Origin: Candidatus Nomurabacteria bacterium
Lineage (GTDB): Bacteria > Patescibacteriota > Minisyncoccia > Phycocordibacterales > UBA9973
Direction of reading: 5' to 3'
DNA: 53,370 nt
Assembly: GCA_943359475.1 (NCBI GenBank)
Contig: CALRHK010000001.1
Span: forward strand, 1 to 53,370
Shown here in pieces: positions 4,495-39,407 of the stretch. The position numbers and the translations under genes were made by a program. How positions within the stretch are numbered: position 1 is the stretch's first letter; each line of letters opens with the position of its first letter. The notes under the pieces are model-generated. The model was given only the letters and a program-made list of their open reading frames with translations. It was not told the origin of the DNA and ran no database searches.

Positions 4495-5439
4495 ATGGCA
4501 AGTGAAATTGATCGACGAAAACGAGAATTTCTCGAATATGTAGAAATCGAAAAGGGAAATAGTCTCAAGACGGTTGAAAACTACGATCGGTACCTATCAC
4601 GTTATTTTGCGTACGCAAAGATCACAAATCCCAAAGATATCACTGAGGATAGCGTTCGTGAATTTCGCCTGCATCTCAACAGACAAGAAGGAATGAAAGT
4701 AAAAGGTCAGCAATCAGCAACACTTAAAAAAAATACTCAAAATTACCACCTTATCGCACTGCGTGTATTTTTGAAGTATCTTATGAAGCGGAGTGTTACC
4801 TCTCTTGCGCCTGATAAAATCGAACTCGCAAAAATTAAACCACGAAGTCTTGATTTGATTTCGAGTGACGAACTTGCGCGACTACTTAGTGCGCCCCTTT
4901 TGTTGCTACAAAAGGCGACGACGGCTGTCGATGCATTAAAATATCTTCGTGATCATGCAATTCTTGAACTCTTTTTCTCGACGGGACTCCGTCTTTCTGA
5001 ATTGTGCTCACTCAACCGCGACCTTGATCTTTCAAAGGATGAATTTTCAATTCGTGGTAAGGGCGAAAAGGTGCGTGTTGTATTTCTTTCAGCTGAAGCA
5101 AAAGAGGCAATTAAAAAATATTTGAACATGCGCAAAGATATGGAAGATCCTCTCTTTTTAAATCACTCACGAAAAAAAAGTGAATCTATGCGACTTACAC
5201 AGCGTTCAATCGAGCGTAGTGTGCGAACCTACGCAACAGTTGCTGGCATTTCAAAAAAAGTAACACCACACGTGATTCGCCATTCATTCGCAACCGACTT
5301 ACTCTCAAATGGTGCTGATATTCGTAGTGTACAAATGATGCTTGGGCATGCCAATATTGCTACGACACAAATATATACACACGTGACTGATGCCCAATTG
5401 CGTGAGGTCCATAAAAAATTCCACACAAAGAGAAAATAA
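4495..5439 (+). CDS. tyrosine site-specific recombinase, XerC/XerD family
   Basis: It has the catalytic pattern: STGLRLSELCSL (Arg), HVIRHSFAT (HxxR) and GHANIATTQIYTHV (His...Tyr), plus an N-terminal SAM-like core-binding domain. Confidence 0.88.
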   Translation: MASEIDRRKREFLEYVEIEKGNSLKTVENYDRYLSRYFAYAKITNPKDITEDSVREFRLHLNRQEGMKVKGQQSATLKKNTQNYHLIALRVFLKYLMKRSVTSLAPDKIELAKIKPRSLDLISSDELARLLSAPLLLLQKATTAVDALKYLRDHAILELFFSTGLRLSELCSLNRDLDLSKDEFSIRGKGEKVRVVFLSAEAKEAIKKYLNMRKDMEDPLFLNHSRKKSESMRLTQRSIERSVRTYATVAGISKKVTPHVIRHSFATDLLSNGADIRSVQMMLGHANIATTQIYTHVTDAQLREVHKKFHTKRK

Positions 5440-9422: not shown

Positions 9423-10913
9423 TTAGAGCCCGTGTTTTTTTCGTATTTGAGTTAGTGCTTCACCCTCTCTTTCTTCTTTTCGTTCCTTACCCTTTTCACC
9501 AAGTGATTTTAGCGAAGTATCATCAAGCTTCGAAAGAGTAAGTGCCCTTTCCTTTAAGTATTCCAAATTGTTTTTTGTATCGTCAACCAGGCATTCTTCA
9601 AGGAGAGCGTGGAGGATCCACCCCATTCTCTTGCCTGGAGGCATACCCATTTCGTGTATCAAGTAATCACCGTTTATCTTAAGCATCGCCACAGAAGTTG
9701 GCGCACGAAGGGCTTCTTCAATCATTGCGTGGTATTTACGAAGTCGATAGGGTGCTTCTTTCTTTTTCATTCCTACCCTATCGCACTCACGTACTTTCAT
9801 AAGATCCCACACGTTTTCCCTGCCTACATTTACGATAGTACGACGTACTGCCGAAAGAGTGATTGTCTCAGTGTCTGAAAAAAACATATGGTAGCGAACG
9901 AGGGAAACTACTTTCTCTGTGGTCACTCTCGGGAATTTAAGCCGTTCCAGTATTTTTTTGGTCATTTGAGCCCCAATTACCTCGTGGCCGTAAAAGGTAT
10001 ACTTCCCTTTACCGCCTGCTTTTGTTCCATCCCATCTACGTGTGCGAGGTTTTCCAATATCATGAAAGAGTGCGGCAAGGCGTATTTCTAGGTCCCACCC
10101 CTTTTCCGCAGCATGGCCAAGTGCGTGAAGAATATGTTCAAAAACATCATAGATATGTTCGCCTTTTTGCTCACAACCCACACCTTCCAAGAGTTCTGGG
10201 GCAACATAATCAAGCAACTTTAGCCGTAAGAGAAGTCCAATACCCAACATTGGGTCCTTTGAGTTTATGATCTTAATAAATTCGTCTCGAATACGTTCTG
10301 CAGCAATTTTCTCAATGAGGGCACTTCCTTCTGCTATCGCCGAGAGTGTTTCTCCAGCTATAGCGAAACCTAAGGCTGTGGAAAACCGAACTGCACGTAG
10401 CATACGAAGCGCATCCTCGTTAAACCTGTCCTTTGGATTACCAACAGCACGTATAACCTTGTCCTTTAAGTCAGTCTGACCATCAAAGACATCAACAATA
10501 ATGTCCTTAATTGGGTCATACGCTATAGCGTTCACAGTAAAATCACGTCTTTTAAGGTCATCTTCTATTTTTTTACTAAAAGTAACACTATTTGGGTGGC
10601 GAAAATCACCATATTCAGAGTCTATTCGATATGTCGTAACCTCTACGAGCCTGACGGTTTCATGGGAAACACCGCCTTCAGCAACAACAGCTACTGTGCC
10701 AAAACTATTTTCATAAATCGTTTTTGGGAATAGCTCGATGATTTTTTCAGGTAGTGCGTCAGTAGTAATATCCCAGTCCTTTGGAGTTATGTCCATCAAA
10801 AGATCTCTTACACAACCACCAACGAGATAGGCTTCAAATCCTGCATTGTTGAGAGTTTCAGTTACACGTGTAACTTCATTTGGGATTGCTCCCCTCTTAA
10901 TTTTTGTTGCCAT
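9423..10913 (-). CDS. cca: CCA-adding tRNA nucleotidyltransferase with HD domain
   Basis: It shows GGCVRDLL and RRDFTVNA polymerase-beta motifs and an HD region (LFHDIGKP). The start was trimmed to MATKIKRG at 10913 because the longer track ORF runs into a tRNA gene. Confidence 0.88.
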   Translation of the reverse strand: MATKIKRGAIPNEVTRVTETLNNAGFEAYLVGGCVRDLLMDITPKDWDITTDALPEKIIELFPKTIYENSFGTVAVVAEGGVSHETVRLVEVTTYRIDSEYGDFRHPNSVTFSKKIEDDLKRRDFTVNAIAYDPIKDIIVDVFDGQTDLKDKVIRAVGNPKDRFNEDALRMLRAVRFSTALGFAIAGETLSAIAEGSALIEKIAAERIRDEFIKIINSKDPMLGIGLLLRLKLLDYVAPELLEGVGCEQKGEHIYDVFEHILHALGHAAEKGWDLEIRLAALFHDIGKPRTRRWDGTKAGGKGKYTFYGHEVIGAQMTKKILERLKFPRVTTEKVVSLVRYHMFFSDTETITLSAVRRTIVNVGRENVWDLMKVRECDRVGMKKKEAPYRLRKYHAMIEEALRAPTSVAMLKINGDYLIHEMGMPPGKRMGWILHALLEECLVDDTKNNLEYLKERALTLSKLDDTSLKSLGEKGKERKEEREGEALTQIRKKHGL

Positions 10914-10922
10914 AGTATAGTG

Positions 10923-10994
10923 TGCACCCGGAGGGATTCGAACCCCCAATAACGGTTCCGAAGACCGTCGTGATATCCATTTCACCACGGGTGC
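10923..10994 (-). tRNA. tRNA-Arg (anticodon TCG)
   Basis: Manual fold: acceptor GCACCCG/CGGGTGC, anticodon stem ACGGT/ACCGT, loop CTTCGGA, T-loop TTCGAAT. It is 72 nt with no encoded CCA. Confidence 0.85.
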
Positions 10995-11072
10995 GTGATA
11001 AATGCTAATAGATAAAATCTAACATTTATAAGGGATTTGTGCAAACGAACCATCGTGATATACTTATACAAT

Positions 11073-11726
11073 ATGAATTGGGACAAAGACCAAATATTCC
11101 AATTACGACAAGAAGGAAAATCGTTTCGTGAGATCCAAAAGCTTACGGGAGTATCACGTAGTACCCTGTCAAAATTGTTTAAAGATGTGGCGTGGTCTCG
11201 GCATATTTCTGTAGAAAAAAATCGCACACGTGTAGCTCAAAGTCGCGAAAAAATGCTAAAGCTAAATATGGTCCGGAAAATCAAATTAGACTACTTGTAC
11301 GCCAAGGCAGAAGATGATGCAAAAAGAGAATTTGAAATAAACAAGAAAAATCCAAACTTCGTTTTGGGCACCGCCCTCTATTTGTCGCATGGTGACAAGA
11401 AAAATACCCACGAAATACGTTTTAGTAGTACTGATTTACATTTACACAAAATATTTCACCAATTTCTTAAAAAATACCTTATAAAACAAGGGGAAATTGT
11501 TAAAATGCAGTTTGTAACAACAAATTTTGAGCAAAAATCCCCCATTACGCAATGGAGCAAGTATTTAGGTCTTCCAGCCAGTCAATTTTATGTATATTCA
11601 ACAAAAAGTCCTCTAATTAAGGCTAAAAGATTGCAAAAAGAAGTCGGAATTAGTATACTTTCAAGTACATTATTAAAGAAAAAGCTTATGAAATGGCTTT
11701 TTCTATTAGTAAATGAAAAGTTATAG
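11073..11726 (+). CDS. HTH-domain protein, possibly a degenerate homing-endonuclease-like protein
   Basis: The N-terminal resolvase-type HTH reads GKSFREIQKLTGVSRSTLSKL. The middle segment FVLGTALYLSHGDKKNTHEIRFSSTD loosely resembles a LAGLIDADG-type block. tRNA genes flank it. Confidence 0.6.
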   Translation: MNWDKDQIFQLRQEGKSFREIQKLTGVSRSTLSKLFKDVAWSRHISVEKNRTRVAQSREKMLKLNMVRKIKLDYLYAKAEDDAKREFEINKKNPNFVLGTALYLSHGDKKNTHEIRFSSTDLHLHKIFHQFLKKYLIKQGEIVKMQFVTTNFEQKSPITQWSKYLGLPASQFYVYSTKSPLIKAKRLQKEVGISILSSTLLKKKLMKWLFLLVNEKL

Positions 11727-11729
11727 ATT

Positions 11730-11800
11730 GCGGGTATGGTTTAGTGGTAGAACACGTCCTTGCCAAGGATGAGACGGGAGTTCGATTCTCCCTACCCGCA
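11730..11800 (+). tRNA. tRNA-Gly (anticodon GCC)
   Basis: Manual fold: acceptor GCGGGTA/TACCCGC, anticodon loop TTGCCAA, T-arm GGGAG-TTCGATT-CTCCC. It is 71 nt with no encoded CCA. Confidence 0.88.
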
Positions 11801-11946
11801 CAAAATAATACACAGTAACTGTGGATAACTCAGGGGATATGTGTATAAAGGACGTCTTTTTAACTGAATAAATGTCCAATAAAAAGTCTTTTAAATTAGA
11901 AATGTATTGTAAAATAAGGACACTTTCGAAATATTAAATAAATAAC

Positions 11947-22016: not shown

Positions 22017-22256
22017 TTAGAGTCCTTTATCAAGGGAGCTAAAATCTGGATTGCTGTAATCTTCCCCAATAGCGTTAAGTTCCGCATTTGCTTCTGCTTT
22101 GAGTTGATTTTTATCAACGGAACCCTGACTTGTATTTGTACCGTTTACTACTGGTTCCTTTGGAGTACTTTTAAGAATATAAATACCGAGACCAACGAGT
22201 ATGATAACGATAATGATAGTAAGTACTGTTGGCAGTGAAGATTTTTTTGGTTCCAT
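22017..22256 (-). CDS. hypothetical small single-pass membrane protein
   Basis: 79 aa with the TM helix LPTVLTIIIVIILVGLGIYIL. Confidence 0.55.
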   Translation of the reverse strand: MEPKKSSLPTVLTIIIVIILVGLGIYILKSTPKEPVVNGTNTSQGSVDKNQLKAEANAELNAIGEDYSNPDFSSLDKGL

Positions 22257-22281: not shown

Positions 22282-23052
22282 TTATTGTACCGCACTATTC
22301 AAATCAATGCTGAGAGCAAGAGTAATTTCCTGGCGTACAGACATGAGTGCTTTGTGGGCATCAATAGCAGCATCTTTTGCACTTTTTGCCATTTCCTTTA
22401 TTTTTTTCGCATCTGCGCTACTTACAACAGATGGCGTACTGGTTGCAGTTGTTTGGGCACCTTTGACTGTAGCCACAAATGCACTGAGCTCGTTTGCTTT
22501 TGTAGTCGCAAGATCAACTTTTGTTTTTGCATCAATCATAGCAGTCACGGCTTTATCCATATCAAATCCTGCAGTTTCAAGACGGGCGATGACAGTACCA
22601 AGGCGTGAGTAAAGTGAAGTAAGTGTTGTGACTGCCCAATCAAAACGCTTTTCGACAATTTGTCTTTTATTCAATCCTTTTTCATCATCGCCACCTACCT
22701 TTAATTTTGCTTTTTCATCGTGACGCACTTCAATCTTTGACATTGAACCAAGACCGTTTTTTGACTCCTCGGTGCTTGTTGCTGTTTCACCCTTGTGCGA
22801 TTTGAGGAAGGGAAGTATTTTCCCTCCGATTGATCCACGTCCAGATGAACCACCATTATCATCGTCGCCCTCATCTTCATCGTCGTCTGATTCTACGTCA
22901 GAATCATCATCTTCTTCCTTTTGCATGCTGGTAGATGTCGCAGAGTTTGTAGGAGTGTTTTCTTCACGATCTGCCTGTACCTTGTGAGCAAAGGGGAGAA
23001 GTACTAAAAATGCAGCTACGAGCACTGAATAAATTTTCAAATATTTTTTCAT
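22282..23052 (-). CDS. hypothetical secreted protein with poly-acidic tract and helical C-terminal half
   Basis: Signal peptide MKKYLKIYSVLVAAFLVLLPFAHKVQA, an EEDDDSDVESDDDEDEGDDD tract, then an Ala/Lys/Thr-rich helical region. Confidence 0.7.
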   Translation of the reverse strand: MKKYLKIYSVLVAAFLVLLPFAHKVQADREENTPTNSATSTSMQKEEDDDSDVESDDDEDEGDDDNGGSSGRGSIGGKILPFLKSHKGETATSTEESKNGLGSMSKIEVRHDEKAKLKVGGDDEKGLNKRQIVEKRFDWAVTTLTSLYSRLGTVIARLETAGFDMDKAVTAMIDAKTKVDLATTKANELSAFVATVKGAQTTATSTPSVVSSADAKKIKEMAKSAKDAAIDAHKALMSVRQEITLALSIDLNSAVQ

Positions 23053-25213: not shown

Positions 25214-25549
25214 ATGGACCCAAAAGACATCAACTCATTTATGCATGCACCGGCAGGAAGTTTAATGCCTGACAACGGTGGACGTCGCAAGAAAATAATT
25301 ACAATTATTGTGCTACTTGTAGCTGTTGCAGGTGCAGGATACTACTACCTCAATAGTAAAAAGAATAGTGTCAATGAAGTTGATCAGAAAAAAATCGATA
25401 TACTCAATAGCCTTTCAGGTACCGGTAGTGAAAAAGGAGTAGTAAATACCCTTGGTCCAACACTACCAGCAAAAAAGGGTACAAAAACCCCTCCTCCAAC
25501 TACCGTAACTGATACTACAAGAATAAATGTACTTAATTCACTTAAATAA
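25214..25549 (+). CDS. module A gene 1: small single-pass membrane protein
   Basis: 111 aa with the TM helix IITIIVLLVAVAGAGYYYL and repeated QKKIDILNSL / RINVLNSL motifs. Its stop lies 2 nt before the next ATG. Confidence 0.7.
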   Translation: MDPKDINSFMHAPAGSLMPDNGGRRKKIITIIVLLVAVAGAGYYYLNSKKNSVNEVDQKKIDILNSLSGTGSEKGVVNTLGPTLPAKKGTKTPPPTTVTDTTRINVLNSLK

Positions 25550-25551
25550 TT

Positions 25552-28113
25552 ATGAGCACACACATTAAACGCATTCTTAAGCTCAGCGCCGGAATCTTTG
25601 TTGGAGTAGCTCTGTTTTTTGTTGCACATACTGCACACGCAGGTGTAAACGATAATGTATCTGGGTGGATTTGGTCTGATACTGTGGGATGGATTAGCCT
25701 TAACTGTACCAATACAAATACGTGTGGAGCCGTAGACTACGGGGTTAAAACTACTGCGGGCACTTTTTCGGGCTATGCATGGAGTTCAAATGTTGGCTGG
25801 ATTAGCTTTAATGTAGCAGACATTGCTGGGTGTCCAGGAAGTTGTACAGCAGCACGGCTTACTAATGGAGTATATGGTCCCATAACTGGTTGGGCACGAA
25901 TAGTAAGTGGGATGGATTGCCCTGGTCCAAGTTGTGCGTCTGGTATTGATGATGGTTTTGATGGTTATATAAGTCTCAGTGGTACGACATACCCTACCCC
26001 AGTAAACAATGGGACAGGCGGAGCAACAAAACCTCAAGATACTAATACAATAGTTGGTTATGCGTGGAGTAGTGATATTGGTTGGATACATCTCAACCCA
26101 AACTTTGGTGGCGCGATAATCGTTAATCTTACTCCACCGCTCGTTGATATGCGTGCTGGAGATAGCCCTGCAAATATATGGGGTGTCACGCATGGTAATA
26201 TTTTCAATTCTTCCTTTGATGTTGGACCTGGTCAATCTGCGACACTTTCGTGGACGGTAAACAGTGCAACCACCTGTACTGCATCAGCAACACCTGCAGA
26301 CCCAGCGTGGAGCGGCACGGTTTCATTTAGTGCAAGTACTCCAACAAGTCTTCAGGTTTCACCAACGCTTACGACACAATATCGACTTGATTGTACTGGT
26401 CCGAGCGGAACTGCTACGGGGAGTGTCACTATTAATCGGATAACAAATCCTGCGCTCAATTTTAATGGTGCAACTGAAGCAACTCCTACAAAAAGTATTA
26501 CTTCTGCAGGTGCAAATGCTCCAATGTATTTTGCATGGACAGCCGAGCCACAGTTTACAAGTTGTACAGCAGAAACAAACAAGTATGATAATGCAACCAA
26601 TGCACCACTTGGTGGTATTGCAACAACTCCGTCATGGAGCGGTATTAACACACTACCAAGTGGAACAGCACTTCGACCACATGGAACACTCACAATGCTC
26701 TTGAATGAATATGGCGCATATTGGTATGAATTTAAATTAACGTGTTCAACAGCATCTGGGTATACTGCAACTCGCTCATTCGTCGTGAATCACAATCTCA
26801 CCAGTGGTCCATTGAAGCCATTTCTCTCACCACTCACATCAAGTGCGACAACAGTTGCGCCGAATACAGATGTCTACATACATATCAATGCGCAGGCAGG
26901 ACAATGTATACCTACGCAGACTCCAGCCCCTAGTGCAGGAGGTCCTACAGGATGGCTTGGTATACAGCCACTCGTGAATCCCGGATGGCTCATCAATGAT
27001 TATGTACTTGTGCATATTGGCAGTCAGACCACATCGCTCACGCTTACTTGTATTGGTCCACGAGGGAATACTGATCCACTCGGGACACGAACAATTACGA
27101 TTACTGTCGTAAATACTGCAGCTCCTACGGTAAGCCTTTCTGCATTTCCTGCGACGGGACTTGCTCCAGGTGGGCAAACAACTCTCACTTATAATTCAAG
27201 TGATGTAACTTCATGTACAACAACCCCAGCTTCAACGCCAGCAGGAAATGGTGCGACGGGTTGGGATGGGGCTTCTCTGTTAGCAAATCAGACTGGTCAA
27301 AAAACGGTAACGATGGGTACTACTGATACAATATTCTATATCGATTGTCTTGGTACTGATGGTGTGACGCACGTACAGGCACAAACAATGGTGACACTTC
27401 AAAAGCACCTTACACTTTCATTTAGTAATAGCGCCTTTTTACCATCAAAGACACTTCCAAATGCAACCACACCTTTTGATATGTATTGGTGGAGTGATGC
27501 GCCACTTTCAAATTGCGTAACAAGTAGCACTCCAAATACATGGTGGACGACGTTCCCAGGACCAATAACAGCAGGTGTTGCACACAAGGCAACTACAGGT
27601 GTAGGACTTCCACACAATGTACCTACGGCTACTGTCTTGGGTATGACATGTCAGGATGCGGGTGGTGCAACAGTGACTGCACAAAATATAAATATAGTAA
27701 TCGATGGACCAACTGCGTCAGTGCAACCAACTGTTTCACTTACTGGACCTGCGTGTATCGCTCCTGGTGATGGTGGTAGTGCTGGTGACGCAACATTAAC
27801 ACTTGCTATCTATGACCCAAGTAGTGTTGTGGGGAGCTGTAGTTTCCTTATTGCGGGTGTGCCATATATTTGGTCAGCAACAGATGTAGACGATATTCGT
27901 GACGGACGCAACGACCATCCATTTTCAGTATCAGTCCCAAATCCACCTAATGGAACAATGACCTTTGGTCCTGTTACGTGTAGTTCGACTGACCCACTCA
28001 TTACTGTTGCACCAACAAATCAAATCACCGTTGGGTATAATGGTACTGCAGCATGGTGTAATCCAACTACGGGCGGAGGAACAAAGGGTGGTTTACAATA
28101 TCAAGAGCGTTAA
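25552..28113 (+). CDS. module A gene 2: 853-aa secreted protein, Trp/Gly-repeat N-domain plus six Cys-bracketed Ig-like modules
   Basis: Signal peptide ending AHTAHA. Repeats GWIWSDTVGWISLNC, GYAWSSNVGWISFN and GYAWSSDIGWIHLN. Then six units of the type SCTAS...W(S/D)G...Y.L.C.G. Confidence 0.85.
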   Translation: MSTHIKRILKLSAGIFVGVALFFVAHTAHAGVNDNVSGWIWSDTVGWISLNCTNTNTCGAVDYGVKTTAGTFSGYAWSSNVGWISFNVADIAGCPGSCTAARLTNGVYGPITGWARIVSGMDCPGPSCASGIDDGFDGYISLSGTTYPTPVNNGTGGATKPQDTNTIVGYAWSSDIGWIHLNPNFGGAIIVNLTPPLVDMRAGDSPANIWGVTHGNIFNSSFDVGPGQSATLSWTVNSATTCTASATPADPAWSGTVSFSASTPTSLQVSPTLTTQYRLDCTGPSGTATGSVTINRITNPALNFNGATEATPTKSITSAGANAPMYFAWTAEPQFTSCTAETNKYDNATNAPLGGIATTPSWSGINTLPSGTALRPHGTLTMLLNEYGAYWYEFKLTCSTASGYTATRSFVVNHNLTSGPLKPFLSPLTSSATTVAPNTDVYIHINAQAGQCIPTQTPAPSAGGPTGWLGIQPLVNPGWLINDYVLVHIGSQTTSLTLTCIGPRGNTDPLGTRTITITVVNTAAPTVSLSAFPATGLAPGGQTTLTYNSSDVTSCTTTPASTPAGNGATGWDGASLLANQTGQKTVTMGTTDTIFYIDCLGTDGVTHVQAQTMVTLQKHLTLSFSNSAFLPSKTLPNATTPFDMYWWSDAPLSNCVTSSTPNTWWTTFPGPITAGVAHKATTGVGLPHNVPTATVLGMTCQDAGGATVTAQNINIVIDGPTASVQPTVSLTGPACIAPGDGGSAGDATLTLAIYDPSSVVGSCSFLIAGVPYIWSATDVDDIRDGRNDHPFSVSVPNPPNGTMTFGPVTCSSTDPLITVAPTNQITVGYNGTAAWCNPTTGGGTKGGLQYQER

Positions 28114-28138
28114 ACATTATTAAATAAGTAATAAACAT

Positions 28139-28534
28139 ATGAAATTTTCACGAGAAGAAATAGTAAAAGCATTTAAGCATGCAGTATTAGTCACCGCATT
28201 CACTCTTAGTTTCACTGCATTTGCAGTATGGAGTGACCCAACAGCGTCTCCACCAGGAAATAACGTAGGCGCACCAATCAACGTTGGTGCAGGTGATCAA
28301 ATGAAAATTGGTGCATTAGGTACAGCAATGTCGAGTCCCGCAGTATTTAATGCAAATGTTGCTGCAGGCGTAAAGCTTATGACTGACGGCAAGGCAGCAT
28401 TTGGTCCGACGGCAGTTTTTGGTGACATGCGTGTTACAGGTGCAGCAGTAACCTTCGACACACTTTCAAATGCGAGCGCTACTCCAAAGCCAGTATGTGT
28501 AAGTCAAACAGGGCAACTCGTACTTTGCCCATAA
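28139..28534 (+). CDS. module A gene 3: 131-aa anchored protein with PPGN...PINVG...Q-K-G motif
   Basis: TM helix AVLVTAFTLSFTAFAV, then WSDPTASPPGNNVGAPINVGAGDQMKIGALG, ending KPVCVSQTGQLVLCP. Confidence 0.75.
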   Translation: MKFSREEIVKAFKHAVLVTAFTLSFTAFAVWSDPTASPPGNNVGAPINVGAGDQMKIGALGTAMSSPAVFNANVAAGVKLMTDGKAAFGPTAVFGDMRVTGAAVTFDTLSNASATPKPVCVSQTGQLVLCP

Positions 28535-28561
28535 ACTCAAATGGTAAAAGTATAGTGATCT

Positions 28562-28591
28562 AAAAAAGAACGCATGCGTGCGTTCTTTTTT
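28562..28591 (+). terminator. rho-independent terminator between module A and module B
   Basis: gaacgca-tgcg-tgcgttc followed by tttttt. Confidence 0.75.
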
Positions 28592-28664
28592 AGATATCCA
28601 CACTCAATACGAAATTTGAATCATAATTTATTTTTTCACGATATAATGAATATAATTATTTAAA

Positions 28665-29015
28665 ATGCTTTTTATGGAACAAAAAAATTTTGCTACAAAA
28701 GATTCTCACCCACGCACTGCGCTATGGCTCGGCCTCATTGTACTTGTTCTTGCGTTGGCGTATGTATTTCTTTTTTATAAAAATGGAATATATAACCCGC
28801 TTTCAAATTCCTCTACCACTACAGCTGGACCAAGCGCAGAAGAGCAACAAAAAGTTTATTCCGCAATAGAGGAAATGTCTGTCCCAACAGGCGCTCCAGC
28901 AAATAAAGAACAAAAGAAAGTATTCGATGCTGTGGTAAATACAAAAACGACCACTACTGGACCAAGCGCAGAAGAGCAACAAAAAGTTTTAAATATAATT
29001 AATACTGGACGATAG
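28665..29015 (+). CDS. module B gene 1: small single-pass membrane protein
   Basis: 116 aa with the TM helix ALWLGLIVLVLALAYVFLF and repeated GPSAEEQQKV(Y/L) and EQKKVFDAV motifs. Its stop lies 1 nt before the next ATG. Confidence 0.7.
   Translation: MLFMEQKNFATKDSHPRTALWLGLIVLVLALAYVFLFYKNGIYNPLSNSSTTTAGPSAEEQQKVYSAIEEMSVPTGAPANKEQKKVFDAVVNTKTTTTGPSAEEQQKVLNIINTGR
28827..28989 (+). repeat. 31-bp perfect direct repeat inside the coding sequence
   Basis: ggaccaagcgcagaagagcaacaaaaagttt occurs at 28827-28857 and 28959-28989, encoding GPSAEEQQKV twice. Confidence 0.9.
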
Positions 29016-29016
29016 T

Positions 29017-30819
29017 ATGAGAATACACAAACTTGCAACATATGTAGTTTCTCTCGCACTCCTCATTGTTGGTGTGTACCTTTATTTTTCAAAACCTGCA
29101 GTACTTTGGGCAGATTCTCCGACGGCAAATGTGCATGGATATATTTGGACTGGCTATGATATGGATGGTAATAGTATTGCGGATGCTGGTTTTGGATGGA
29201 TAAGTATGAATTGTGCCGAGGGTGGTCCTGGTGCAACAAATGTCTGTTCACAAAGTCTCTATGGTGTTGATTTTGATCAAAACTCCGGGCTCCTATCGGG
29301 ACATGCATGGGGTGGAAATGGTCTTGGCTGGCTTTCATTTGATGCGGGAGATGTGGCAGGGTGTCCACTTCTTGATTCTCCAGCGCCAAATAAATGTCAG
29401 GGTCACATCGATGTAGCAACTGGAAAAGTAAGCGGATGGTTCCGTGTGCTTTCAGTACCAAAGACTGGCGACAATGGTAAAAATGGAAATTGGAATGGAT
29501 GGATACATCTATCGGGAGCATTTCATAGTTCACCGGATGCAACTGGAAGCAAGGGTGTTACCTATGTACAAATCGATCCACAAACTTCAAAACTTGTAGG
29601 TTATGCATATGGAAGTACGATCGCTTCTCCTACGTTTGGTACAGAGGAAGTTGGTTGGGTAGCTTTTCAAACTAAATATAGCAACGTAACAATCGTCACT
29701 CAAAATCAAAAGAGAGGTCTCACACTCTCTATTACTGATGGAATTAATACTGCAACAAGTGGCACGAATGCAACACTACTCACTACTTCACCAAATGCAA
29801 CCAATCTTTCGACAAAGTGGACGTCACCTCAATTGGTTAAATACACAGCATGTAAAGCAAGTGCAACCCCAGCAACTGCAAATAATGGAGTTACTGGATG
29901 GAATACAACGACAGTAGTAAGTAATTTGGATTCAAACAATAGTTACACTGCAACTGCTCAAAACATTACTGGTCCTCAAGCCAGCGCGCAGATAGATTAC
30001 ACAATTGAGTGTCTCAATTCGATTACGAATGCTATTGATACAGCGACAGTTTCAGTAAAAGGAGATAAAAATGCTACGCCAACATTTATTTTCCAACTTT
30101 CAAGTGGTTTCTCTTCTGTATCTACAGGTATTGGTGTTCCAAGTACTGCAAGTGACACAATTAATGCAACTATCGGAGCGCCACTTACTCTCGAATGGAG
30201 AAGTCTCAACAATACTGAATATGATCAATGTGTCGCAACGGGGACATGGACCGGTACTGTCACAAGTATTAATAGTGGTAATAGTTATTCTGCAAGTGAC
30301 ACTAGGACCGTACTTGCGACACCACTGCTTCAGCCTTATACAATTAATTGTACGAATACAGTAACCGGTGATACTACTGGACCGCTTACACTCAAAGTAA
30401 TTACAAGCATTGATCCATCGCAACACACAATACTCATGGGGCTTAGTCCTGCATGTGTGACCCCGGGGCAGTCGTTTACGGTTACATGGAGTGATCCTGC
30501 GGGGAGTATGAGTTCATGTCATCCGGTACAAGTTACACCCGAACATCCATCAGGTTGGCTTGAAACACTTCTGTTCTCTATCGGAAATGGACTGCTGCCA
30601 AATGGAAACGTGCCAGGTTTGAGTGTGCCAACGACAAGTTCAAACGGCATTCGTTTCAAAATGGTATGTACGGGTACGGACGGTCTTGATTACCCAGATC
30701 CAAATTCTGCAATTCCTTATTATCGTTCACCAGTACTGCGTGTGGTGCAAAATGCTGCAGACTGTGCAAATCAACCAGGGCAAGGTAGACCAGGAAGAAT
30801 CATTTGGAACGAACACTAA
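29017..30819 (+). CDS. module B gene 2: 600-aa secreted protein, Trp/Gly-repeat N-domain plus three Cys-bracketed Ig-like modules
   Basis: N-terminal anchor or signal VVSLALLIVGVYLYF. Repeats GFGWISMNC, GHAWGGNGLGWLSFD, GWIHLS and EEVGWVAFQ. Then three Cys-pair modules. Confidence 0.85.
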   Translation: MRIHKLATYVVSLALLIVGVYLYFSKPAVLWADSPTANVHGYIWTGYDMDGNSIADAGFGWISMNCAEGGPGATNVCSQSLYGVDFDQNSGLLSGHAWGGNGLGWLSFDAGDVAGCPLLDSPAPNKCQGHIDVATGKVSGWFRVLSVPKTGDNGKNGNWNGWIHLSGAFHSSPDATGSKGVTYVQIDPQTSKLVGYAYGSTIASPTFGTEEVGWVAFQTKYSNVTIVTQNQKRGLTLSITDGINTATSGTNATLLTTSPNATNLSTKWTSPQLVKYTACKASATPATANNGVTGWNTTTVVSNLDSNNSYTATAQNITGPQASAQIDYTIECLNSITNAIDTATVSVKGDKNATPTFIFQLSSGFSSVSTGIGVPSTASDTINATIGAPLTLEWRSLNNTEYDQCVATGTWTGTVTSINSGNSYSASDTRTVLATPLLQPYTINCTNTVTGDTTGPLTLKVITSIDPSQHTILMGLSPACVTPGQSFTVTWSDPAGSMSSCHPVQVTPEHPSGWLETLLFSIGNGLLPNGNVPGLSVPTTSSNGIRFKMVCTGTDGLDYPDPNSAIPYYRSPVLRVVQNAADCANQPGQGRPGRIIWNEH

Positions 30820-30881
30820 TTAACATCTGTCGAATATTTATAAGGTATAATTAATAATATTAAAATTTAGAAGTCCTCGTT

Positions 30882-32741
30882 ATGAAAAATATTTTTGCAA
30901 CAATTAAAATAGTGACTCTCGGACTCGTGCTTGCAATTGGCGTGAGTTATGTGAGTGCGGCCGGAGGGTGGGCTGGTCCATCAACAGGTCCGACTGGTGG
31001 CAACATAGAGCCTCCTGTAAATGTAAGTGCAAGCAATCAAGTAAAAAGTGGTACCTTTGGTGTTGGCCCAACGCTCAATCTCTCGGGTGCTATGGACGGC
31101 ATACTTGCCGCACAGCGATCAATACTTAGTTTCGGTAGTATAATTGCTGCTGGGACTTCTAATGTTGGAGGAAACATCTATGCAGGTCTTCCTTCACTTA
31201 CTGGAAACTATAGTGGTGTACATAACAATGGTGCGATTTCTGCTGACTGGTTCTGTCTCCCTGCTGCAGGGGGTGGCTGTATTAATTCATGGTCAGGTGT
31301 TGGTGGTTCAGGAGCAATGCCAACAGGAACTATTACACAAACTCTTCGTCATGATGGTACAAAATGGACTGCCTCAAATGCCCTTTTAAATGATGGTACG
31401 AATCTAATTATAAGTACTGGTGGTCTTCGTGTGGGTAATGCGGGTGGACTCATGCCACCAGCTGGCGGAATTTTGGTAAATGGATTAATAAAAACATCCG
31501 GCAACACAACAGCAACAACAAATGGAGATATTGGTGCGTCACGCTTCTGTTTACCAGGCACAAATCCAAACGGAGGTTGTATTTCAACATGGCCAATTGC
31601 GACCGGTGGAGGAGCACTACCAGCAGGTACGAGTGATCAGACACTTCGTAATACAGGTGGAACAACCTATGTTGCTGATTCGAACCTCAAAAATAATGGA
31701 ACCAATGTTACAATTGGAGGCAATGCGACTTCTTATTCCTATGGCCGTTTGAGTGTAAACAAAGGTCCTGTTTCGGTAGATCTTGCTGGCGGTGTCGGAG
31801 CTCAAGGAACAGATGCACTCATACTTAATGGTGCAACTGGTATTGGTAATGTTGCAGTGGTAACCAATCAACCATTAATTAATTTTTGGAATTCACCTGG
31901 AAACACAAATGCAAATATTGCGGTGCGTGATTTGTATGCATATAACGATGCCCGTGTTTATGGTAATGCATATGTAACAAATACTGTCGGCGCACACGAT
32001 GCAACAATTGTAGATAATGTGACTGCGGGAGGTACCGTACACGCAACAGTACTTGAAGCACTTGATCACGCGCAAATTATCGGTCTTGCCCCTGGTGGTA
32101 ATGTCTGTGCTGACGCCACGGGTGTGCTCTATGTTTGTCCAGCTACTCCGCCACCTGCAGCAGCAACTGGTCAAACTTGTGGGTTGTATAACAATCAACC
32201 AACAACTGGTGATGGAACACATTTCGGATGTCCAAACGGTTCTGCTTTGGTACAAATTTCAGCAAATGGGCAAACAGGTACCTGTCGCTATTACGACCCG
32301 GGTGTAACTACGGGCAGTACTGCAGTCCCAAATAACGGAACGCCATATTGTTATAATCCAGGGAATCTTTTGGCAGGTATCATCATTCTCTCAACAAATG
32401 AATTGCAGTATGGTTGTGCAGGAGATACATATACACTCCGAGGTACCGCTACAAATGCGATTGGATCAGTAACCTACCATTGGTCATATAGTACTGACCC
32501 TGACCCACTTCACGATGGTTTTGCGGGACCAATGTATCTCATTAGTGCCACAAACCAACAAAATTTGAGTTTCCACATGTATCACTACGAGAGAACAGCA
32601 CCTGCTTCATATACACCAGTTGAATATACCTATACCCTCACTATTACAGATAGCGCAGGAAGAACTGCTTCAACCACGTTTGTCACAACACAGACTCGAG
32701 CACCAGCTACAGGTTCAACAGGTCTCCCATGTTTCCAATAA
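30882..32741 (+). CDS. module B gene 3: 619-aa anchored fibre-like protein with the same N-terminal motif
   Basis: TM helix IVTLGLVLAIGVSYV, then GWAGPSTGPTGGNIEPPVNVSASNQVKSGTFGVG. It has two internal ~80-aa repeats (FCLP..GGCI..W...LP.GT..QTLR), VCADATGVLYVCP, and a PKD-like C-terminus. Confidence 0.85.
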   Translation: MKNIFATIKIVTLGLVLAIGVSYVSAAGGWAGPSTGPTGGNIEPPVNVSASNQVKSGTFGVGPTLNLSGAMDGILAAQRSILSFGSIIAAGTSNVGGNIYAGLPSLTGNYSGVHNNGAISADWFCLPAAGGGCINSWSGVGGSGAMPTGTITQTLRHDGTKWTASNALLNDGTNLIISTGGLRVGNAGGLMPPAGGILVNGLIKTSGNTTATTNGDIGASRFCLPGTNPNGGCISTWPIATGGGALPAGTSDQTLRNTGGTTYVADSNLKNNGTNVTIGGNATSYSYGRLSVNKGPVSVDLAGGVGAQGTDALILNGATGIGNVAVVTNQPLINFWNSPGNTNANIAVRDLYAYNDARVYGNAYVTNTVGAHDATIVDNVTAGGTVHATVLEALDHAQIIGLAPGGNVCADATGVLYVCPATPPPAAATGQTCGLYNNQPTTGDGTHFGCPNGSALVQISANGQTGTCRYYDPGVTTGSTAVPNNGTPYCYNPGNLLAGIIILSTNELQYGCAGDTYTLRGTATNAIGSVTYHWSYSTDPDPLHDGFAGPMYLISATNQQNLSFHMYHYERTAPASYTPVEYTYTLTITDSAGRTASTTFVTTQTRAPATGSTGLPCFQ

Positions 32742-35424: not shown

Positions 35425-37143
35425 ATGAAAAGGTGTCGTGGTACAATCTGTCCTATGCCGACCAATGCCCCACATGATTCACCACTGTTAGAAAAATATT
35501 CACAACTTCTCGCTAATCTTCTCTATAGTCGAGGTATTCGTACCCTTACTGAAGCAGAGCACTTTCTTGAACCCTCATATGAGCGTGACTTTAGTGATCC
35601 TTTCTTAATGCACGATATGGAGCGTGCGTGCGTGCGGATATATGAAGCAATAGAGGCACGCGAGAAGATCGTTGTGTATGGTGACTATGATTGTGATGGA
35701 ATTCCAGGGGCAGTGCTACTCAATGATTTTTTTAGGAAAATTAACTATACAGACTATACAATTTATATACCCGACCGTCACACCGAAGGCTATGGTCTTA
35801 ACAAAGAAGCAATTGATCGTTTTATAACAAGTGGTGTCACACTGCTTGTGACTGTTGATTTGGGAATCAGTAATGGTGAAGAGATTGCACAAGCTACCGC
35901 TTCTGGTATTGAGGTCATTGTTACAGATCACCACTTGCCACCAGAAGAGCTCCCACGCGCGTATGCACTCGTGAATCCAAAGTTGGTGATGAATGGTATG
36001 ACGTATCCCGATCCAATGCTCTGTGGCGCAGGTGTTGCGTTTAAACTCGTGCAGGGATTACTCAATAAGTATGGCGAGTATTGGGGTATCCAAAAAGGGT
36101 GGGAAAAATGGTTACTTGATATGGCGGGACTTGCAACGCTTTCTGATATGGTACCGCTCTGTAATGAAAACCGGGCTATCGCATATTTTGGGTTACGCGT
36201 GATCGCACGCAACAAGCGAATTGGACTTGCAGAACTACTACGTCGCCTTGGAATTAATCCACAGAATCTTACCGAAGACGATCTTACTTTTATGGTGACC
36301 CCGAGGATTAACGCAGCGTCACGAATGGACTCACCAATGCGGGCATTCCAGCTTTTGGCAACCGAAGAACCTGCGGAGGCAATCACACTTTCAGAACATC
36401 TTACGAAAATTAATGATGAACGAAAAACGCACGTTGCAACAATCATGAAAGAGGTACATAAGGTGCTCGAAAAAAGAGAACTACCTGAAATTGTAGTAAT
36501 TGGAAATAGTAACTGGCGAGTCGGTGTGCTCGGTATTGTGGCTTCAAAGATTGCAGAGGAGTATGAGAAACCAGCATTCGTGTGGGGAATGGAAGGAAGT
36601 GAAGTAATAAAAGGCTCGTGTCGTTCAAATGGTTCAATCAATGTAGTACGTCTTATGGAACACACGGCGACCCACTTACTCGACTATGGCGGGCATGAGC
36701 TTGCAGGAGGCTTTTCGGTCTCACACGAACATATTCACACACTTGAAAGTGCGCTTATCACCGCCTACCCGATGGCGCTTCGTCCTCTAGAAGATGCTAT
36801 ACACAAGTACACACCGCTGACGCTTAGTGAGGTTACTCTACGTACGTATAACGAGATAGCGCGCCTCGCACCGTTTGGACTCGGGAACGAAAAACCTGTT
36901 TTTATATTTGAGCTCGTTGAAATACGTTCTGTAAAATTATTTGGTAAAGAAAAAAATCACCTTGAGATTATTGTGGGTGATACGAGTAAAACAAAAATCA
37001 AAGCAATCGCTTTTTTTAGTGCAGAAGATTCGTTTAAGAAAAAGATTGTTATTGGTGAAAAAATAAATCTTTGTGCTACGATGGAACTCTCGTATTTTGC
37101 AGGACGTACCGAGCTTCGATTAAGAATTATTGATATACTTTAA
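35425..37143 (+). CDS. recJ: single-stranded-DNA-specific exonuclease RecJ
   Basis: DHH motifs VVYGDYDCDGIPG, TVDLGI and VTDHH, followed by the DHHA1 region. An alternative start at 35455 (MPTNAPHD) is preceded by TGgTACAAT. Confidence 0.88.
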   Translation: MKRCRGTICPMPTNAPHDSPLLEKYSQLLANLLYSRGIRTLTEAEHFLEPSYERDFSDPFLMHDMERACVRIYEAIEAREKIVVYGDYDCDGIPGAVLLNDFFRKINYTDYTIYIPDRHTEGYGLNKEAIDRFITSGVTLLVTVDLGISNGEEIAQATASGIEVIVTDHHLPPEELPRAYALVNPKLVMNGMTYPDPMLCGAGVAFKLVQGLLNKYGEYWGIQKGWEKWLLDMAGLATLSDMVPLCNENRAIAYFGLRVIARNKRIGLAELLRRLGINPQNLTEDDLTFMVTPRINAASRMDSPMRAFQLLATEEPAEAITLSEHLTKINDERKTHVATIMKEVHKVLEKRELPEIVVIGNSNWRVGVLGIVASKIAEEYEKPAFVWGMEGSEVIKGSCRSNGSINVVRLMEHTATHLLDYGGHELAGGFSVSHEHIHTLESALITAYPMALRPLEDAIHKYTPLTLSEVTLRTYNEIARLAPFGLGNEKPVFIFELVEIRSVKLFGKEKNHLEIIVGDTSKTKIKAIAFFSAEDSFKKKIVIGEKINLCATMELSYFAGRTELRLRIIDIL

Positions 37144-37910: not shown

Positions 37911-39407
37911 ATGAGACGCCATACCTTACAAAGTGTGGCCGGTGGATTTCTTGCAGGGGTTGCGTGTGCGTCAGTAATTTCACTCGGGGTTTATTTCCTC
38001 TCTGTGTGCAGTATTGTTGCAGTAATACTCTTGTGTCTCCATAGAATAAAAGCCCCTCGAACGCGTGGGGTTTTTATTTTGGCACTCTGGATACTCTGCT
38101 TTGGTGTTGGAGGATATCGCTTTGAAATCGCAAGACACTACAGGGGTGAGCAACTCTTATTGCAACAGGTGGGGGAGAAAGTACAATTGCGAGGAAGACT
38201 TGTAGACGAGGCAGATCAACGTGAATTTAATACTAAATATGTTGTGAAAATTGTGCAGAGTGGAGATCTCATGATTTCTCCTACAAAAATATTAGTAACT
38301 ACAAACGACATTTCTACACTTGTGTACGGGACAGAAGTCATTGTGAGCGGTGTGCTTACAAGCCCACAACCTTTTGTGACTGAGAATGGGAGAACGTTTG
38401 ATTACACCTCATACTTGCGCAAAGACGGTATATATTTTGAAGTGAAAAAAGCAGAGTTGCACACAATAAACCCCGCACAAGTGAGTGTACGAGGTATCTT
38501 ATTTTCAATAAAAAGAGAGGTACTCTCAATAATGAGAAAACAAATACCAGAACCCGAGAGTAGCTTACTGGCAGGACTTTTGGTTGGTGCAAAGCAATCG
38601 CTTGGCGAATCATTACGGCAAGATTTTATACGCACGGGGACGATTCACATCGTAGCCCTATCAGGTTATAACGTTACCATTGTCGCAGAAAGTATTATGC
38701 GCATGTTGGGGATGGTACTTGCGCGAACCACTTCAATATTTTTTGGTATTGGTGCAATTATTCTTTTTTCGATTATGACTGGTGCTGGTGCCACGGTAGT
38801 GCGTGCGTCGGTAATGGCAATACTTGCGCTTGTTGCGCGAGCAACGGGCCGTACGAATGATATTGGTAGGGCACTACTCATCACAGCATTTCTTATGGTG
38901 CTGTGGAATCCATGGACACTCGTATACGATGTTTCATTCCAGCTTTCATTTCTCGCAACATTAGGTTTAATCTATATTACTCCGAAGGTAACACCATGGT
39001 TTTATTGGTTGCCAACACGATTTGGATTACGTGAAATTGTATCAGCGACTGTTGCGACAAACATTTTTACACTTCCATTCATTCTCTACACAATGGGAAT
39101 ACTTTCTATTGTTGCGATTCCAGTAAATCTGCTCGTGCTACCACTTATCCCGCTCACAATGCTTGCTGGATTTTTGGTTGTAGTTCTTGGCGCAGTCTGG
39201 CATTACCTCGCACTCCCACTGAGTTATCTTGCATTTGGGCTTTTGTGGTATGAACTGGAAATTATTACTCGTTCTGCACAACTACCGTTTGCGGCGGTCA
39301 CTATTCCCGGGTTTTCATTCATACTACTAGTGCTACTCTATGGGCTACTGTACTGGTTTTTCTTTATTTACAAGGCCACAACAAGGTCTGTGGAGCTTGA
39401 CAAATAG
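37911..39407 (+). CDS. comEC: ComEC/Rec2 DNA-uptake channel protein (OB + competence domains, no MBL domain)
   Basis: It has N-terminal TM helices, an OB-like region, then a polytopic competence domain (GTIHIVALSGYNVTIV). It ends without a metallo-beta-lactamase domain. Confidence 0.82.
   Translation: MRRHTLQSVAGGFLAGVACASVISLGVYFLSVCSIVAVILLCLHRIKAPRTRGVFILALWILCFGVGGYRFEIARHYRGEQLLLQQVGEKVQLRGRLVDEADQREFNTKYVVKIVQSGDLMISPTKILVTTNDISTLVYGTEVIVSGVLTSPQPFVTENGRTFDYTSYLRKDGIYFEVKKAELHTINPAQVSVRGILFSIKREVLSIMRKQIPEPESSLLAGLLVGAKQSLGESLRQDFIRTGTIHIVALSGYNVTIVAESIMRMLGMVLARTTSIFFGIGAIILFSIMTGAGATVVRASVMAILALVARATGRTNDIGRALLITAFLMVLWNPWTLVYDVSFQLSFLATLGLIYITPKVTPWFYWLPTRFGLREIVSATVATNIFTLPFILYTMGILSIVAIPVNLLVLPLIPLTMLAGFLVVVLGAVWHYLALPLSYLAFGLLWYELEIITRSAQLPFAAVTIPGFSFILLVLLYGLLYWFFFIYKATTRSVELDK

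Follow-up and report, generated by a model that had tools for sequence, protein, structure and literature searches.

We analyzed a 53,370-nucleotide stretch of DNA (hereafter the window) from a Candidatus Nomurabacteria bacterium (assembly GCA_943359475.1, contig CALRHK010000001.1), in which six co-directional genes occupy positions 25214–32741. A preliminary description had arranged these genes in two parallel triads encoding secreted or surface proteins, and we found all six open reading frames (ORFs) present at the coordinates and lengths that it gave. We refer to the triads as A and B and to the protein families of their first, second, and third genes as g1, G2, and G3. The region is organized as follows:

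25214–25549, plus strand: A1 (g1 family), ORF of 111 amino acids
25552–28113, plus strand: A2 (G2 family), ORF of 853 amino acids
28139–28534, plus strand: A3 (G3 family, minimal form), ORF of 131 amino acids
28562–28591, no strand: terminator hairpin of triad A (−22 kcal/mol, z = −8.0 versus shuffled sequences)
28665–29015, plus strand: B1 (g1 family), ORF of 116 amino acids
29017–30819, plus strand: B2 (G2 family), ORF of 600 amino acids
30882–32741, plus strand: B3 (G3 family, long form), ORF of 619 amino acids
32748–32794, no strand: stronger terminator hairpin of triad B (−30.4 kcal/mol, z = −9.6 versus shuffled sequences)

The tight spacing reported between the first and second genes (2 nucleotides in triad A, 1 nucleotide in triad B) was likewise confirmed, and the hairpin between the triads is genuine by its folding energy. 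This hairpin is symmetric, with A/T runs flanking both sides, and closes the triad A transcription unit; the second is strong and bidirectional and closes triad B directly before tpiA. As each triad ends in its own terminator, triads A and B are separate transcription units. On one side the region is flanked by nusA and the inorganic pyrophosphatase (PPase) gene ppa on the minus strand, and on the other by tpiA-pgk on the plus strand. The DNA past one end of the window is a ribosomal-protein operon.

Searches of the six proteins against Pfam, NCBIfam, and PHROGs returned nothing above threshold, and searches of solved structures (PDB) by sequence and by profile found no relatives. None of the six has a confident match to a characterized pilin, S-layer, or tail-fiber family, and neither the region nor the rest of the window encodes an ATPase, a secretin, a prepilin motif, or an LPXTG signal. 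Matches of B1 to IncI1 TraP (22 bits, where the cutoff is 135) and of A1 to EzrA were rejected as transmembrane or compositional noise. Our literature searches returned no description of the g1, G2, or G3 families or of the three-gene module that they form. The nearest published account concerns highly expressed signal-peptide proteins with immunoglobulin (Ig)-like or PKD folds in Paceibacteria-type genomes, whose function is unknown and which are presumed to be adhesins (PMC10936435).

The three-gene module and its families

The region is best explained as an old duplication, with two paralogous copies of a cell-envelope module of three genes that is found widely among the ultra-small Patescibacteria. 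We define the module as three adjacent co-directional genes that encode a small bitopic protein with three helical repeats (g1), a protein with a Trp/Gly-repeat domain of the Y-A-W-S-x-N-I-G-W-I type (G2), and a protein with the mature N-terminus W-x-x-P-T-x-x-P-P-x-x-N-x-x-A-P-I-N-x-G-x3-Q-x-K-x-G (G3). Both triads have this composition, and the arrangement repeats in dozens of loci. Using the G2 domain, we fetched 73 independent loci (these and further loci are numbered below with the prefix L), of which 37 have at least six genes on each side. G3 adjoins G2 in 27 of the 73 loci and lies at most two genes away in 38, consistent with the expectation that the three families co-localize in other Patescibacteria genomes; among the 37 loci with full flanks, the latter count is 20. 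In most loci g1 either immediately precedes G2 or separates it from G3, with gaps of 3–17 nucleotides, and gene order differs among loci (g1-G2-G3, g1-G3-x-G2, G2-g1-G3, G3-G2).

The claim that the two triads match position by position holds by direct comparison for the second and third genes. A2 and B2 align over the N-terminal domain and first Ig-like module (BLASTP E = 2e-19) and again over their C-terminal parts (E = 1e-7), and the similarity of A3 and B3 (E = 6e-7) is confined to their N-terminal 46 residues. A1 and B1 show no significant similarity in pairwise comparison (E = 0.4) and are linked via family profiles only. Iterated profile searches over the ORFs of related loci joined them, and a profile of the g1 post-membrane tail, made without any window sequence, scored A1 at 9.6 bits and B1 at 26.2 bits, against 8.4 and 9.8 bits for the best of 1000 shuffles.

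The two-triad arrangement is kept in loci L001 and L005. In comparisons with these loci, A-type and B-type orthologues are 38–71% identical and paralogues 27–34% identical. Because both types have orthologues in L001 and L005, the duplication that gave rise to them is old. We also considered a ‘canonical’ B triad with A as a recent duplicate. The orthologues of both types rule this out, as do the mixed affinities of the two copies: the A2 N-terminal domain is nearer to single-copy G2 proteins, and B3 is nearer to the pilus-linked G3 of L003.

A2 comprises a signal peptide (residues ~1–30), a Trp/Gly-repeat beta domain (~31–200; nucleotides 25642–26151), five Cys-bracketed Ig-like modules, a two-disulfide C-terminal domain, and a tail ending in LQYQER. 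B2 begins with a signal peptide or signal anchor and a divergent form of the Trp/Gly-repeat domain, continues with two Ig-like modules and a two-disulfide C-terminal domain, and has a tail ending in RIIWNEH. The shared N-terminal domain had been recognized in the preliminary description, together with six and three Ig-like modules; by their Cys pairs these number five and two, each set being followed by the two-disulfide C-terminal domain. The hydrophobic N-termini of the second and third gene products end in A-x-A-type sites directly ahead of the conserved domains. Judged by sequence, they look like cleavable Sec signal peptides and not anchors, a correction to the earlier description of A3 and B3 as anchored proteins.

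The G2 N-terminal domain consists of four Trp/Gly hairpin repeats of the S-G-Y-A-W-S-x-N-I-G-W-I-S-F-N type with small disulfide loops between them. Its profile retrieves 522 proteins, every one unnamed or ‘hypothetical’ and typically 300–400 amino acids long. A pattern scan of species representatives (one genome per species) found at least 579 matching stretches, mostly in records titled as Patescibacteria or Parcubacteria lineages (Kaiser-, Taylor-, Nomura-, Yonath-, Niyogi-, Harrison-, Wolfe-, Portnoy-, and Nealsonbacteria, Paceibacterota, Minisyncoccia, and others). When 46 family members were searched with Pfam, no model covered the N-terminal domain, and the modules downstream of it were variable and adhesin-type (PKD, LamG, Big_1, Big_2, CARDB).

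An AlphaFold2 (AF2) model of A2 residues 31–310 is all-beta, with a mean predicted local distance difference test score (pLDDT) of 79. Foldseek comparison of this model with the PDB gave weak matches to a propeller-plus-Ig structure (1l0q; E = 9e-4, template modeling score 0.22) and to generic Ig-like domains, with the second domain of the model matching Ig-like structures. Matches in BFVD were weak ones to cyanophage virion structural proteins (~110–270 aligned columns, aligned part unspecified), and a PDB sequence profile search with the G2 domain found nothing.

A contig recorded as ‘uncultured Gammaproteobacteria’ (L073, CAYYGX010000004.1) encodes several Trp/Gly-domain proteins, including ones of 2,608 and 1,048 amino acids, as well as a 635-amino acid G3-type protein. 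Either this contig is mis-binned or the G2 family is present outside Patescibacteria.

G3 proteins begin with an n-h-c signal sequence that runs to an A-x-A-type site and is followed directly by W-T-G-P-T-x-x-P-P-x-x-N-x-x-A-P-I-N-V-G-x3-Q-x-K-x-G-x-L. Past this conserved N-terminus of ~30 residues the family is wholly divergent, with lengths of 97–871 amino acids. A3 represents a minimal form, in which the signal peptide precedes the mature N-terminus W-S-D-P-T-A-S-P-P-G-N-N-V-G-A-P-I-N-V-G-x3-Q-x-K-x-G and the C-terminus is a disulfide hairpin, C-V-S-Q-T-G-Q-L-V-L-C-P. In B3 the signal peptide and conserved mature N-terminus lead into a Gly/Asn/Thr-rich fiber-like region with repeated F-C-L-P-x(3-6)-G-G-C-I-x-x-W and G-T-x-x-Q-T-L-R-x-x-G motifs, followed by a C-A-D-A-T-G-V-L-Y-V-C-P hairpin, a Cys-rich region, and a terminal PKD/Ig-like beta-sandwich. 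Both motifs first reported for the third genes are shared by A3 and B3: C-x-x-x-T-G-x-L-x-x-C-P exactly as described, and the N-terminal one in a corrected register (P-x-G-x-N-x3-P-[IV]-N-V instead of P-x-G-N).

The terminal domain is the sole usable part of the AF2 model of B3. It matches PKD structures, with strands at ~497–604 and 10-residue block means of pLDDT across ~490–610 that are mostly 56–88 (one block 47), and residues 515–599 give a weak, sub-threshold Pfam match to K319L-like PKD.

In combining a conserved N-terminus with a hypervariable distal end, G3 resembles phage tail fibers and bacterial fibers with a Peptidase_S74 intramolecular chaperone. Distant G3-type proteins carry tail-fiber-type Peptidase_S74 or Gly_rich_2 ends and share the motifs G-T-S-G-Q-T-L-R-H-D-G-T and G-N-V-G-I-G-T, and tail-fiber-like motifs are common to these proteins and B3. 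Unlike tail fibers, A3 and B3 have Sec signal peptides, no Peptidase_S74, and no phage context. An exhaustive G3 profile search returned 25,776 matches contaminated by the G-N-V-G-I-G-T repeat and gives no clean count of the family; a third search with a short N-terminal profile was uninformative, yielding only eight short proteins.

The G3 profile also retrieves giant proteins of 2,000–7,450 amino acids with up to 53 copies of a ~40-residue repeat of the L-N-T-G-G-A-x-N-G-L-I-V-x-x-G-N-V-G-I-G-T-T-x-P type, which follows the N-terminal motif in many short G3 proteins as well. At the nusA ... tpiA site of L047 and L080, one G2 gene is followed by three tandem G3 genes of differing length, an arrangement that suggests exchangeable or multiple distal fibers per G2.

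The g1 proteins are about 95–150 amino acids long and, in the family alignment, have one transmembrane helix and three helical repeats of the form (S/T)-x-x-E-(E/Q)-K-x-x-I-L-x-x-L-(S/N). A1 is a bitopic membrane protein with a short cytoplasmic N-terminus, one transmembrane helix, and an external tail with three short repeats of the (S/T)-x-x-E/Q-K-x-x-I-L-x-x-L type. In B1 the single transmembrane helix is followed by three repeats of the E-E-Q-Q-K-V-x-x-x-I/V type.

Links to type IV pilus genes

The preliminary description had concluded from the lack of visible machinery that the triads, if they build a fiber or adhesin, belong to none of the described systems, a conclusion that our comparisons did not support. 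The absence of assembly machinery holds inside the window and fails in the loci of relatives, where type IV pilus genes adjoin the triad and the triad precedes pilB, pilC, and pilin genes. A block with PPase and NusA on the minus strand, then g1, G2, and G3 (with pilB, pilC, and pilins), then the TIM and PGK genes recurs in L003, L006, L011, L012, L019, and L053, and the flanks of this block are those of the window.

At the nusA-tpiA site of L003 the order is g1, G2, G3, two ORFs of 138 and 84 amino acids, pilB (MshEN and T2SSE domains), pilC (T2SSF), and pilins; the genes after pilC encode a pilin with a G-A-T-F-I-E motif, two other proteins resembling pilins, and one resembling PilX. Triad orthologues cluster with type IV pilus genes in L003, L006, L011, L012, L025, L028, L034, and L053, and the gap between G2 or G3 and pilB is 62–77 nucleotides in L006, L011, and L025. 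Thirteen of the 37 full-flank loci have a type IV pilus gene no more than six genes away from G2, compared with about 5% expected for a random gene (a rough estimate for a ~900-gene genome with one or two pilus clusters).

G2 genes also cluster with type IV pilus genes in L054, L055, L068, and L081. In L055, L068, and L081 (Niyogi-, Nealson-, and Portnoybacteria), three or four pilin-like genes begin 16–59 nucleotides after G2, and these G2/minor-pilin operons occupy chromosomal sites different from nusA/tpiA. The corresponding position in the minor-pilin operons of type IVa systems is held by pilY1, as is well established (e.g., PMC7541494).

In L054 (Harrisonbacteria, JACPTS010000001.1), the gene after pilB-pilC encodes a 502-amino acid protein in which a prepilin N-terminus (Pfam N_methyl) and an fn3 domain precede a C-terminal Trp/Gly domain that is 39% identical to that of A2 (BLASTP E = 1e-30). 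Two G3 genes follow this fusion, and a g1 gene lies slightly further on. The modular-pilin/G3 stretch has the following coordinates in L054:

8927–10435: modular-pilin/G3 stretch, first part
10455–11908: modular-pilin/G3 stretch, second part

Both L054 G3 genes are frameshifted in the assembly, broken at the same point just past the signal peptide, which points either to a repeat that was misassembled or to real frameshifts.

We identified a further element common to G2 and pilus-cluster proteins. G2 proteins tend to end in a hydrophobic-x-E-x tail at the extreme C-terminus (PIFQEF, PAFEEF, PTWKEI; LQYQER in A2 and IIWNEH in B2), which is present in 51 of 79 G2 proteins versus 24 of 1065 other ORFs (Fisher p = 1e-49). 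The same tail closes the PilX-like last gene of pilus clusters in L006, L011, and L099 and secreted proteins without a Trp/Gly domain directly upstream of pilB in L092 and L117. The tails in this set include SWLEI, YWKEI, DFEEF, and LFREF, and the genes are:

L006, 9440–11305: tail-bearing non-G2 gene, PilX-like
L011, 15596–16915: tail-bearing non-G2 gene, PilX-like
L099, 3879–5348: tail-bearing non-G2 gene, PilX-like
L092, 907–2601: tail-bearing non-G2 gene, secreted protein upstream of pilB
L117, 5519–9646: tail-bearing non-G2 gene, secreted protein upstream of pilB

The shared tail is suggestive of a common partner at or near the pilus machinery and may act more generally in Patescibacteria as a short C-terminal signal by which pilus-associated proteins are docked or sorted. 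A g1 gene lies no more than three genes away from 20 of 37 tail-bearing G2 genes but from only 5 of 23 tail-less ones (p = 0.017).

Taken together, the synteny, the minor-pilin operons, and the L054 fusion make the type IV pilus the leading candidate partner of the module, albeit one that the window does not encode. The closest functional analogues of G2 are the PilY1/PilC tip adhesins of type IVa pili in Pseudomonas, Neisseria, and Myxococcus (PMC7541494). Like PilY1, G2 is a large non-pilin protein with an ordinary Sec signal peptide, is encoded within or beside pilus operons (before pilin sets in L055, L068, and L081, and before pilB in L006, L011, and L025), and pairs one conserved docking domain with a variable adhesive part; the Foldseek matches of A2 also have a weak beta-propeller-like flavor. 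In contrast to PilY1, the conserved domain of G2 is N-terminal instead of C-terminal, an extra conserved C-terminal tail is present, the g1 and G3 partners have no counterpart in PilY1 systems, and no pilus genes are adjacent in the window. The PilY1 propeller had no Pfam match in A2, B2, or the 46 family members, and no PilY1 appeared among the Foldseek PDB matches. Because this defining propeller is absent, we do not consider G2 a member of the PilY1 family.

The L054 protein (N_methyl, fn3, Trp/Gly) is of the same kind as the modular type IV pilins PilB and PilC of Streptococcus sanguinis (PMC8179133), and it follows that a G2 domain can be displayed on a pilus. It differs from them in that the grafted module belongs to an undescribed family and is not a vWA or lectin domain. 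The window proteins differ from modular pilins in not being pilins and in lacking N_methyl and the G-F-T-L-x-E motif.

Weighing the possible roles of the module

We favor, with moderate confidence, the reading that the region encodes an optional, type IV pilus-associated adhesin module of anchor, stalk, and fiber that is duplicated in this genome. Most likely the module is a new form of adhesin system, associated with the pilus or the cell surface, and not a categorically new machine. In the mechanism we propose, the conserved elements (the g1 repeats, the G2 tail and Trp/Gly domain, and the mature G3 N-terminus) would be docking interfaces, and the variable parts would serve as spacer and binding end. 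The G2 tail would be the cell-proximal end, held by g1 and/or a type IV pilus component, with the Ig stalk projecting the Trp/Gly domain outward. The Trp/Gly domain would bind the conserved G3 N-terminus, exposed by signal-peptide cleavage, and the variable end of G3 would bind a host cell or substrate.

As export would proceed by Sec, no dedicated ATPase is needed; the partner machinery would be the type IV pilus, presumably encoded by the organism outside the window. Triads A (long stalk, minimal G3) and B (short stalk, long G3) may provide two display lengths or specificities. The Trp/Gly domain lies opposite the putative anchoring end in both G2 and the L054 fusion; in the latter, the pilin would replace tail and g1 as the anchor, leaving the Trp/Gly domain distal, with G3 encoded adjacent.

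Several observations weigh against this reading. The 53-kb window contains no pilB, pilC, or pilin-like gene, none of its ORFs has a pilin-like N-terminus, and the six proteins go unmatched by N_methyl, a model that did recognize its positive controls (the L003 pilin and the L054 fusion). About 65% of the G2 loci with full flanks have no nearby type IV pilus gene. We also sampled from the pilus side by fetching 80 metagenome loci with a pilB profile, of which roughly 19 are informative (Paceibacteria-type, with a PilB at least 57% identical to that of L003). A Trp/Gly-domain gene is present in 0 of these ~19 loci, and only 3 (L093, L094, and L106) have G3 or g1-G3. In two pilB-centered loci, L092 and L117, a different large secreted protein with an F-x-E-F tail lies directly upstream of pilB, preceded in L117 by g1.

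Given pilB-centered loci without G2, the pilus does not need G2, and the module is optional and lineage-restricted. Much of the pilus linkage could reflect inherited synteny within some clades instead of many independent events, and the correlation between tail and g1 is modest and carries no phylogenetic correction. Structural modeling adds little: the Foldseek matches in the PDB and BFVD assign no fold to the Trp/Gly domain, for which no structural relative is informative, and most of the B3 model is of low quality (overall pLDDT 43.7), with ~490–610 as the better part. Finally, we infer every protein–protein contact of the proposed mechanism.

An alternative is that the module is an autonomous Sec-exported, non-covalent surface fiber or spike, with g1 as anchor, G2 as stalk, and G3 as distal fiber, independent of the type IV pilus. 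Proximity to pilus genes would then stem from joint regulation or from a ‘surface island’ that the two share between nusA and tpiA. The window, L001, L005, L010, L047, and L080 keep the triad or a multiplied G3 at nusA/tpiA with no pilus gene, which together with the pilus-free majority of full-flank G2 loci and the complete lack of G2 in the pilB-centered sample fits such independence; the triads here also have their own terminators, and the N-termini of all three proteins are Sec-type, not prepilin-type. This alternative sits poorly with the L054 fusion, in which a genuine pilin carries the Trp/Gly domain and G3 genes adjoin, with the G2 genes that head minor-pilin operons in three further lineages with different gene orders, and with the C-terminal tail common to G2 and the pilus-cluster protein. 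We regard it as plausible but less probable than a pilus-associated module.

A bolder proposal, which we advance only tentatively, is that the three families build an undescribed Sec-dependent appendage of three parts (a g1 tether, a disulfide-stapled G2 Ig stalk, and an exchangeable distal G3 fiber) that would be either standalone, as in the window, or pilus-grafted and would serve as the main host-recognition device of these episymbionts. Two new docking interfaces would join its parts, with the Trp/Gly domain gripping the N-terminus of G3 and the hydrophobic-x-E-hydrophobic C-terminal tail of G2 attaching to g1.

The proteins could also form no joint structure, being independent secreted or wall-associated proteins (glycan- or wall-binding proteins, adhesins) at a hotspot for fast-evolving surface genes. 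Gene order that differs between loci, a G3 copy number of 0 to 3, and the occurrence of G3-type N-termini on very many differently built proteins are in line with this, as are the aromatic hairpin repeats of G2, which we take to resemble wall- or glycan-binding repeats in general style only. Pfam CW_binding_1, GW, and SLH repeats had no match at E ≤ 1 in the six proteins and 46 G2 members. We consider this explanation unlikely given that tight spacing of 1–17 nucleotides is kept across distant lineages, that conservation is limited to terminal elements (Trp/Gly domain, tail, G3 N-terminus) in the manner of docking interfaces and not of independent enzymes or binders, and that the tail correlates with the presence of g1.

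Among adhesins of monoderms, the sortase-anchored MSCRAMM-type Ig-like/PKD proteins likewise combine a signal peptide with tandem Ig-like stalk modules. G2 differs from these in lacking LPXTG and a C-terminal transmembrane segment, in ending in a short hydrophobic-x-E-hydrophobic tail, and in having every Ig-like module bracketed by a Cys pair. Neither a C-terminal LPXTG nor a C-terminal transmembrane segment was found; the sole L-P-x-[TSA]-G match is internal, at B3 residue 126. At the level of PKD/Ig families, the window proteins yield only the sub-threshold B3 match, and some G2 homologues have true PKD matches.

It is highly improbable that the region is a prophage or tail-fiber remnant, with G3 as a phage receptor-binding fiber and G2 as a virion Ig-like decoration protein, as the Peptidase_S74 ends and G-N-V-G-I-G-T repeats of distant G3-type proteins and the weak BFVD matches of the A2 model might suggest: PHROGs gave no significant match to the six proteins, the region is flanked by housekeeping genes (nusA, ppa, tpiA, and pgk) that other genomes conserve as well, no gene for a capsid, terminase, or tail protein lies in the neighborhood, and the viral contigs of IMG/VR contain neither a G2 relative nor any DNA that codes for the commonest form of the G3 N-terminal motif, a pattern that matches seven times in our fetched loci as a positive control.

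Neighboring genes and implications for Patescibacteria

Other genes of the window were reviewed alongside the triads. On the minus strand, between trigger factor and ppa/nusA, a pair of genes encodes a single-pass protein with a weak match to the g1 profile and a secreted protein. This order (g1-like gene, ~250-amino acid protein, PPase, NusA) is seen again in at least 11 other loci (L008, L010, L012, L017, L019, L020, L036, L047, L090, L091, and L097), and the two genes may be a second conserved envelope gene pair, pointing away from the triads. RecJ and ComEC are encoded 3–5 kb downstream of triad B. We dropped ComEC as a candidate part of the module, as it is near G2 in no other fetched locus and its proximity here looks coincidental. 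These genes and a recombinase gene 20 kb upstream are located at:

4495–5439: tyrosine recombinase (Phage_integrase and SAM-like N-domain; XerC/D-like or integrase)
22017–22256, minus strand: 79-amino acid single-pass protein, g1-profile match at E about 1e-6
22282–23052, minus strand: 256-amino acid secreted protein with an acidic low-complexity stretch
35425–37143: RecJ
37911–39407: ComEC (Competence and DUF4131 domains)

Patescibacteria account for a large part of bacterial diversity, and those in cultivation grow attached to other cells. To our knowledge, how most of them recognize and hold their hosts is unknown, with pili and unnamed secreted Ig-like proteins as the usual suspects. Our analysis defines a widespread and wholly unannotated module of three families with conserved docking elements, hypervariable ends, and links to the type IV pilus that include a pilin fusion. 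The g1, G2, and G3 families deserve their own models in domain databases, and they offer defined proteins that can be tested as the host-attachment apparatus of Paceibacteria-type lineages, part of a very large uncultured radiation. If the proposed interfaces are confirmed, the variable ends of G3 could allow host range to be predicted from genomes.

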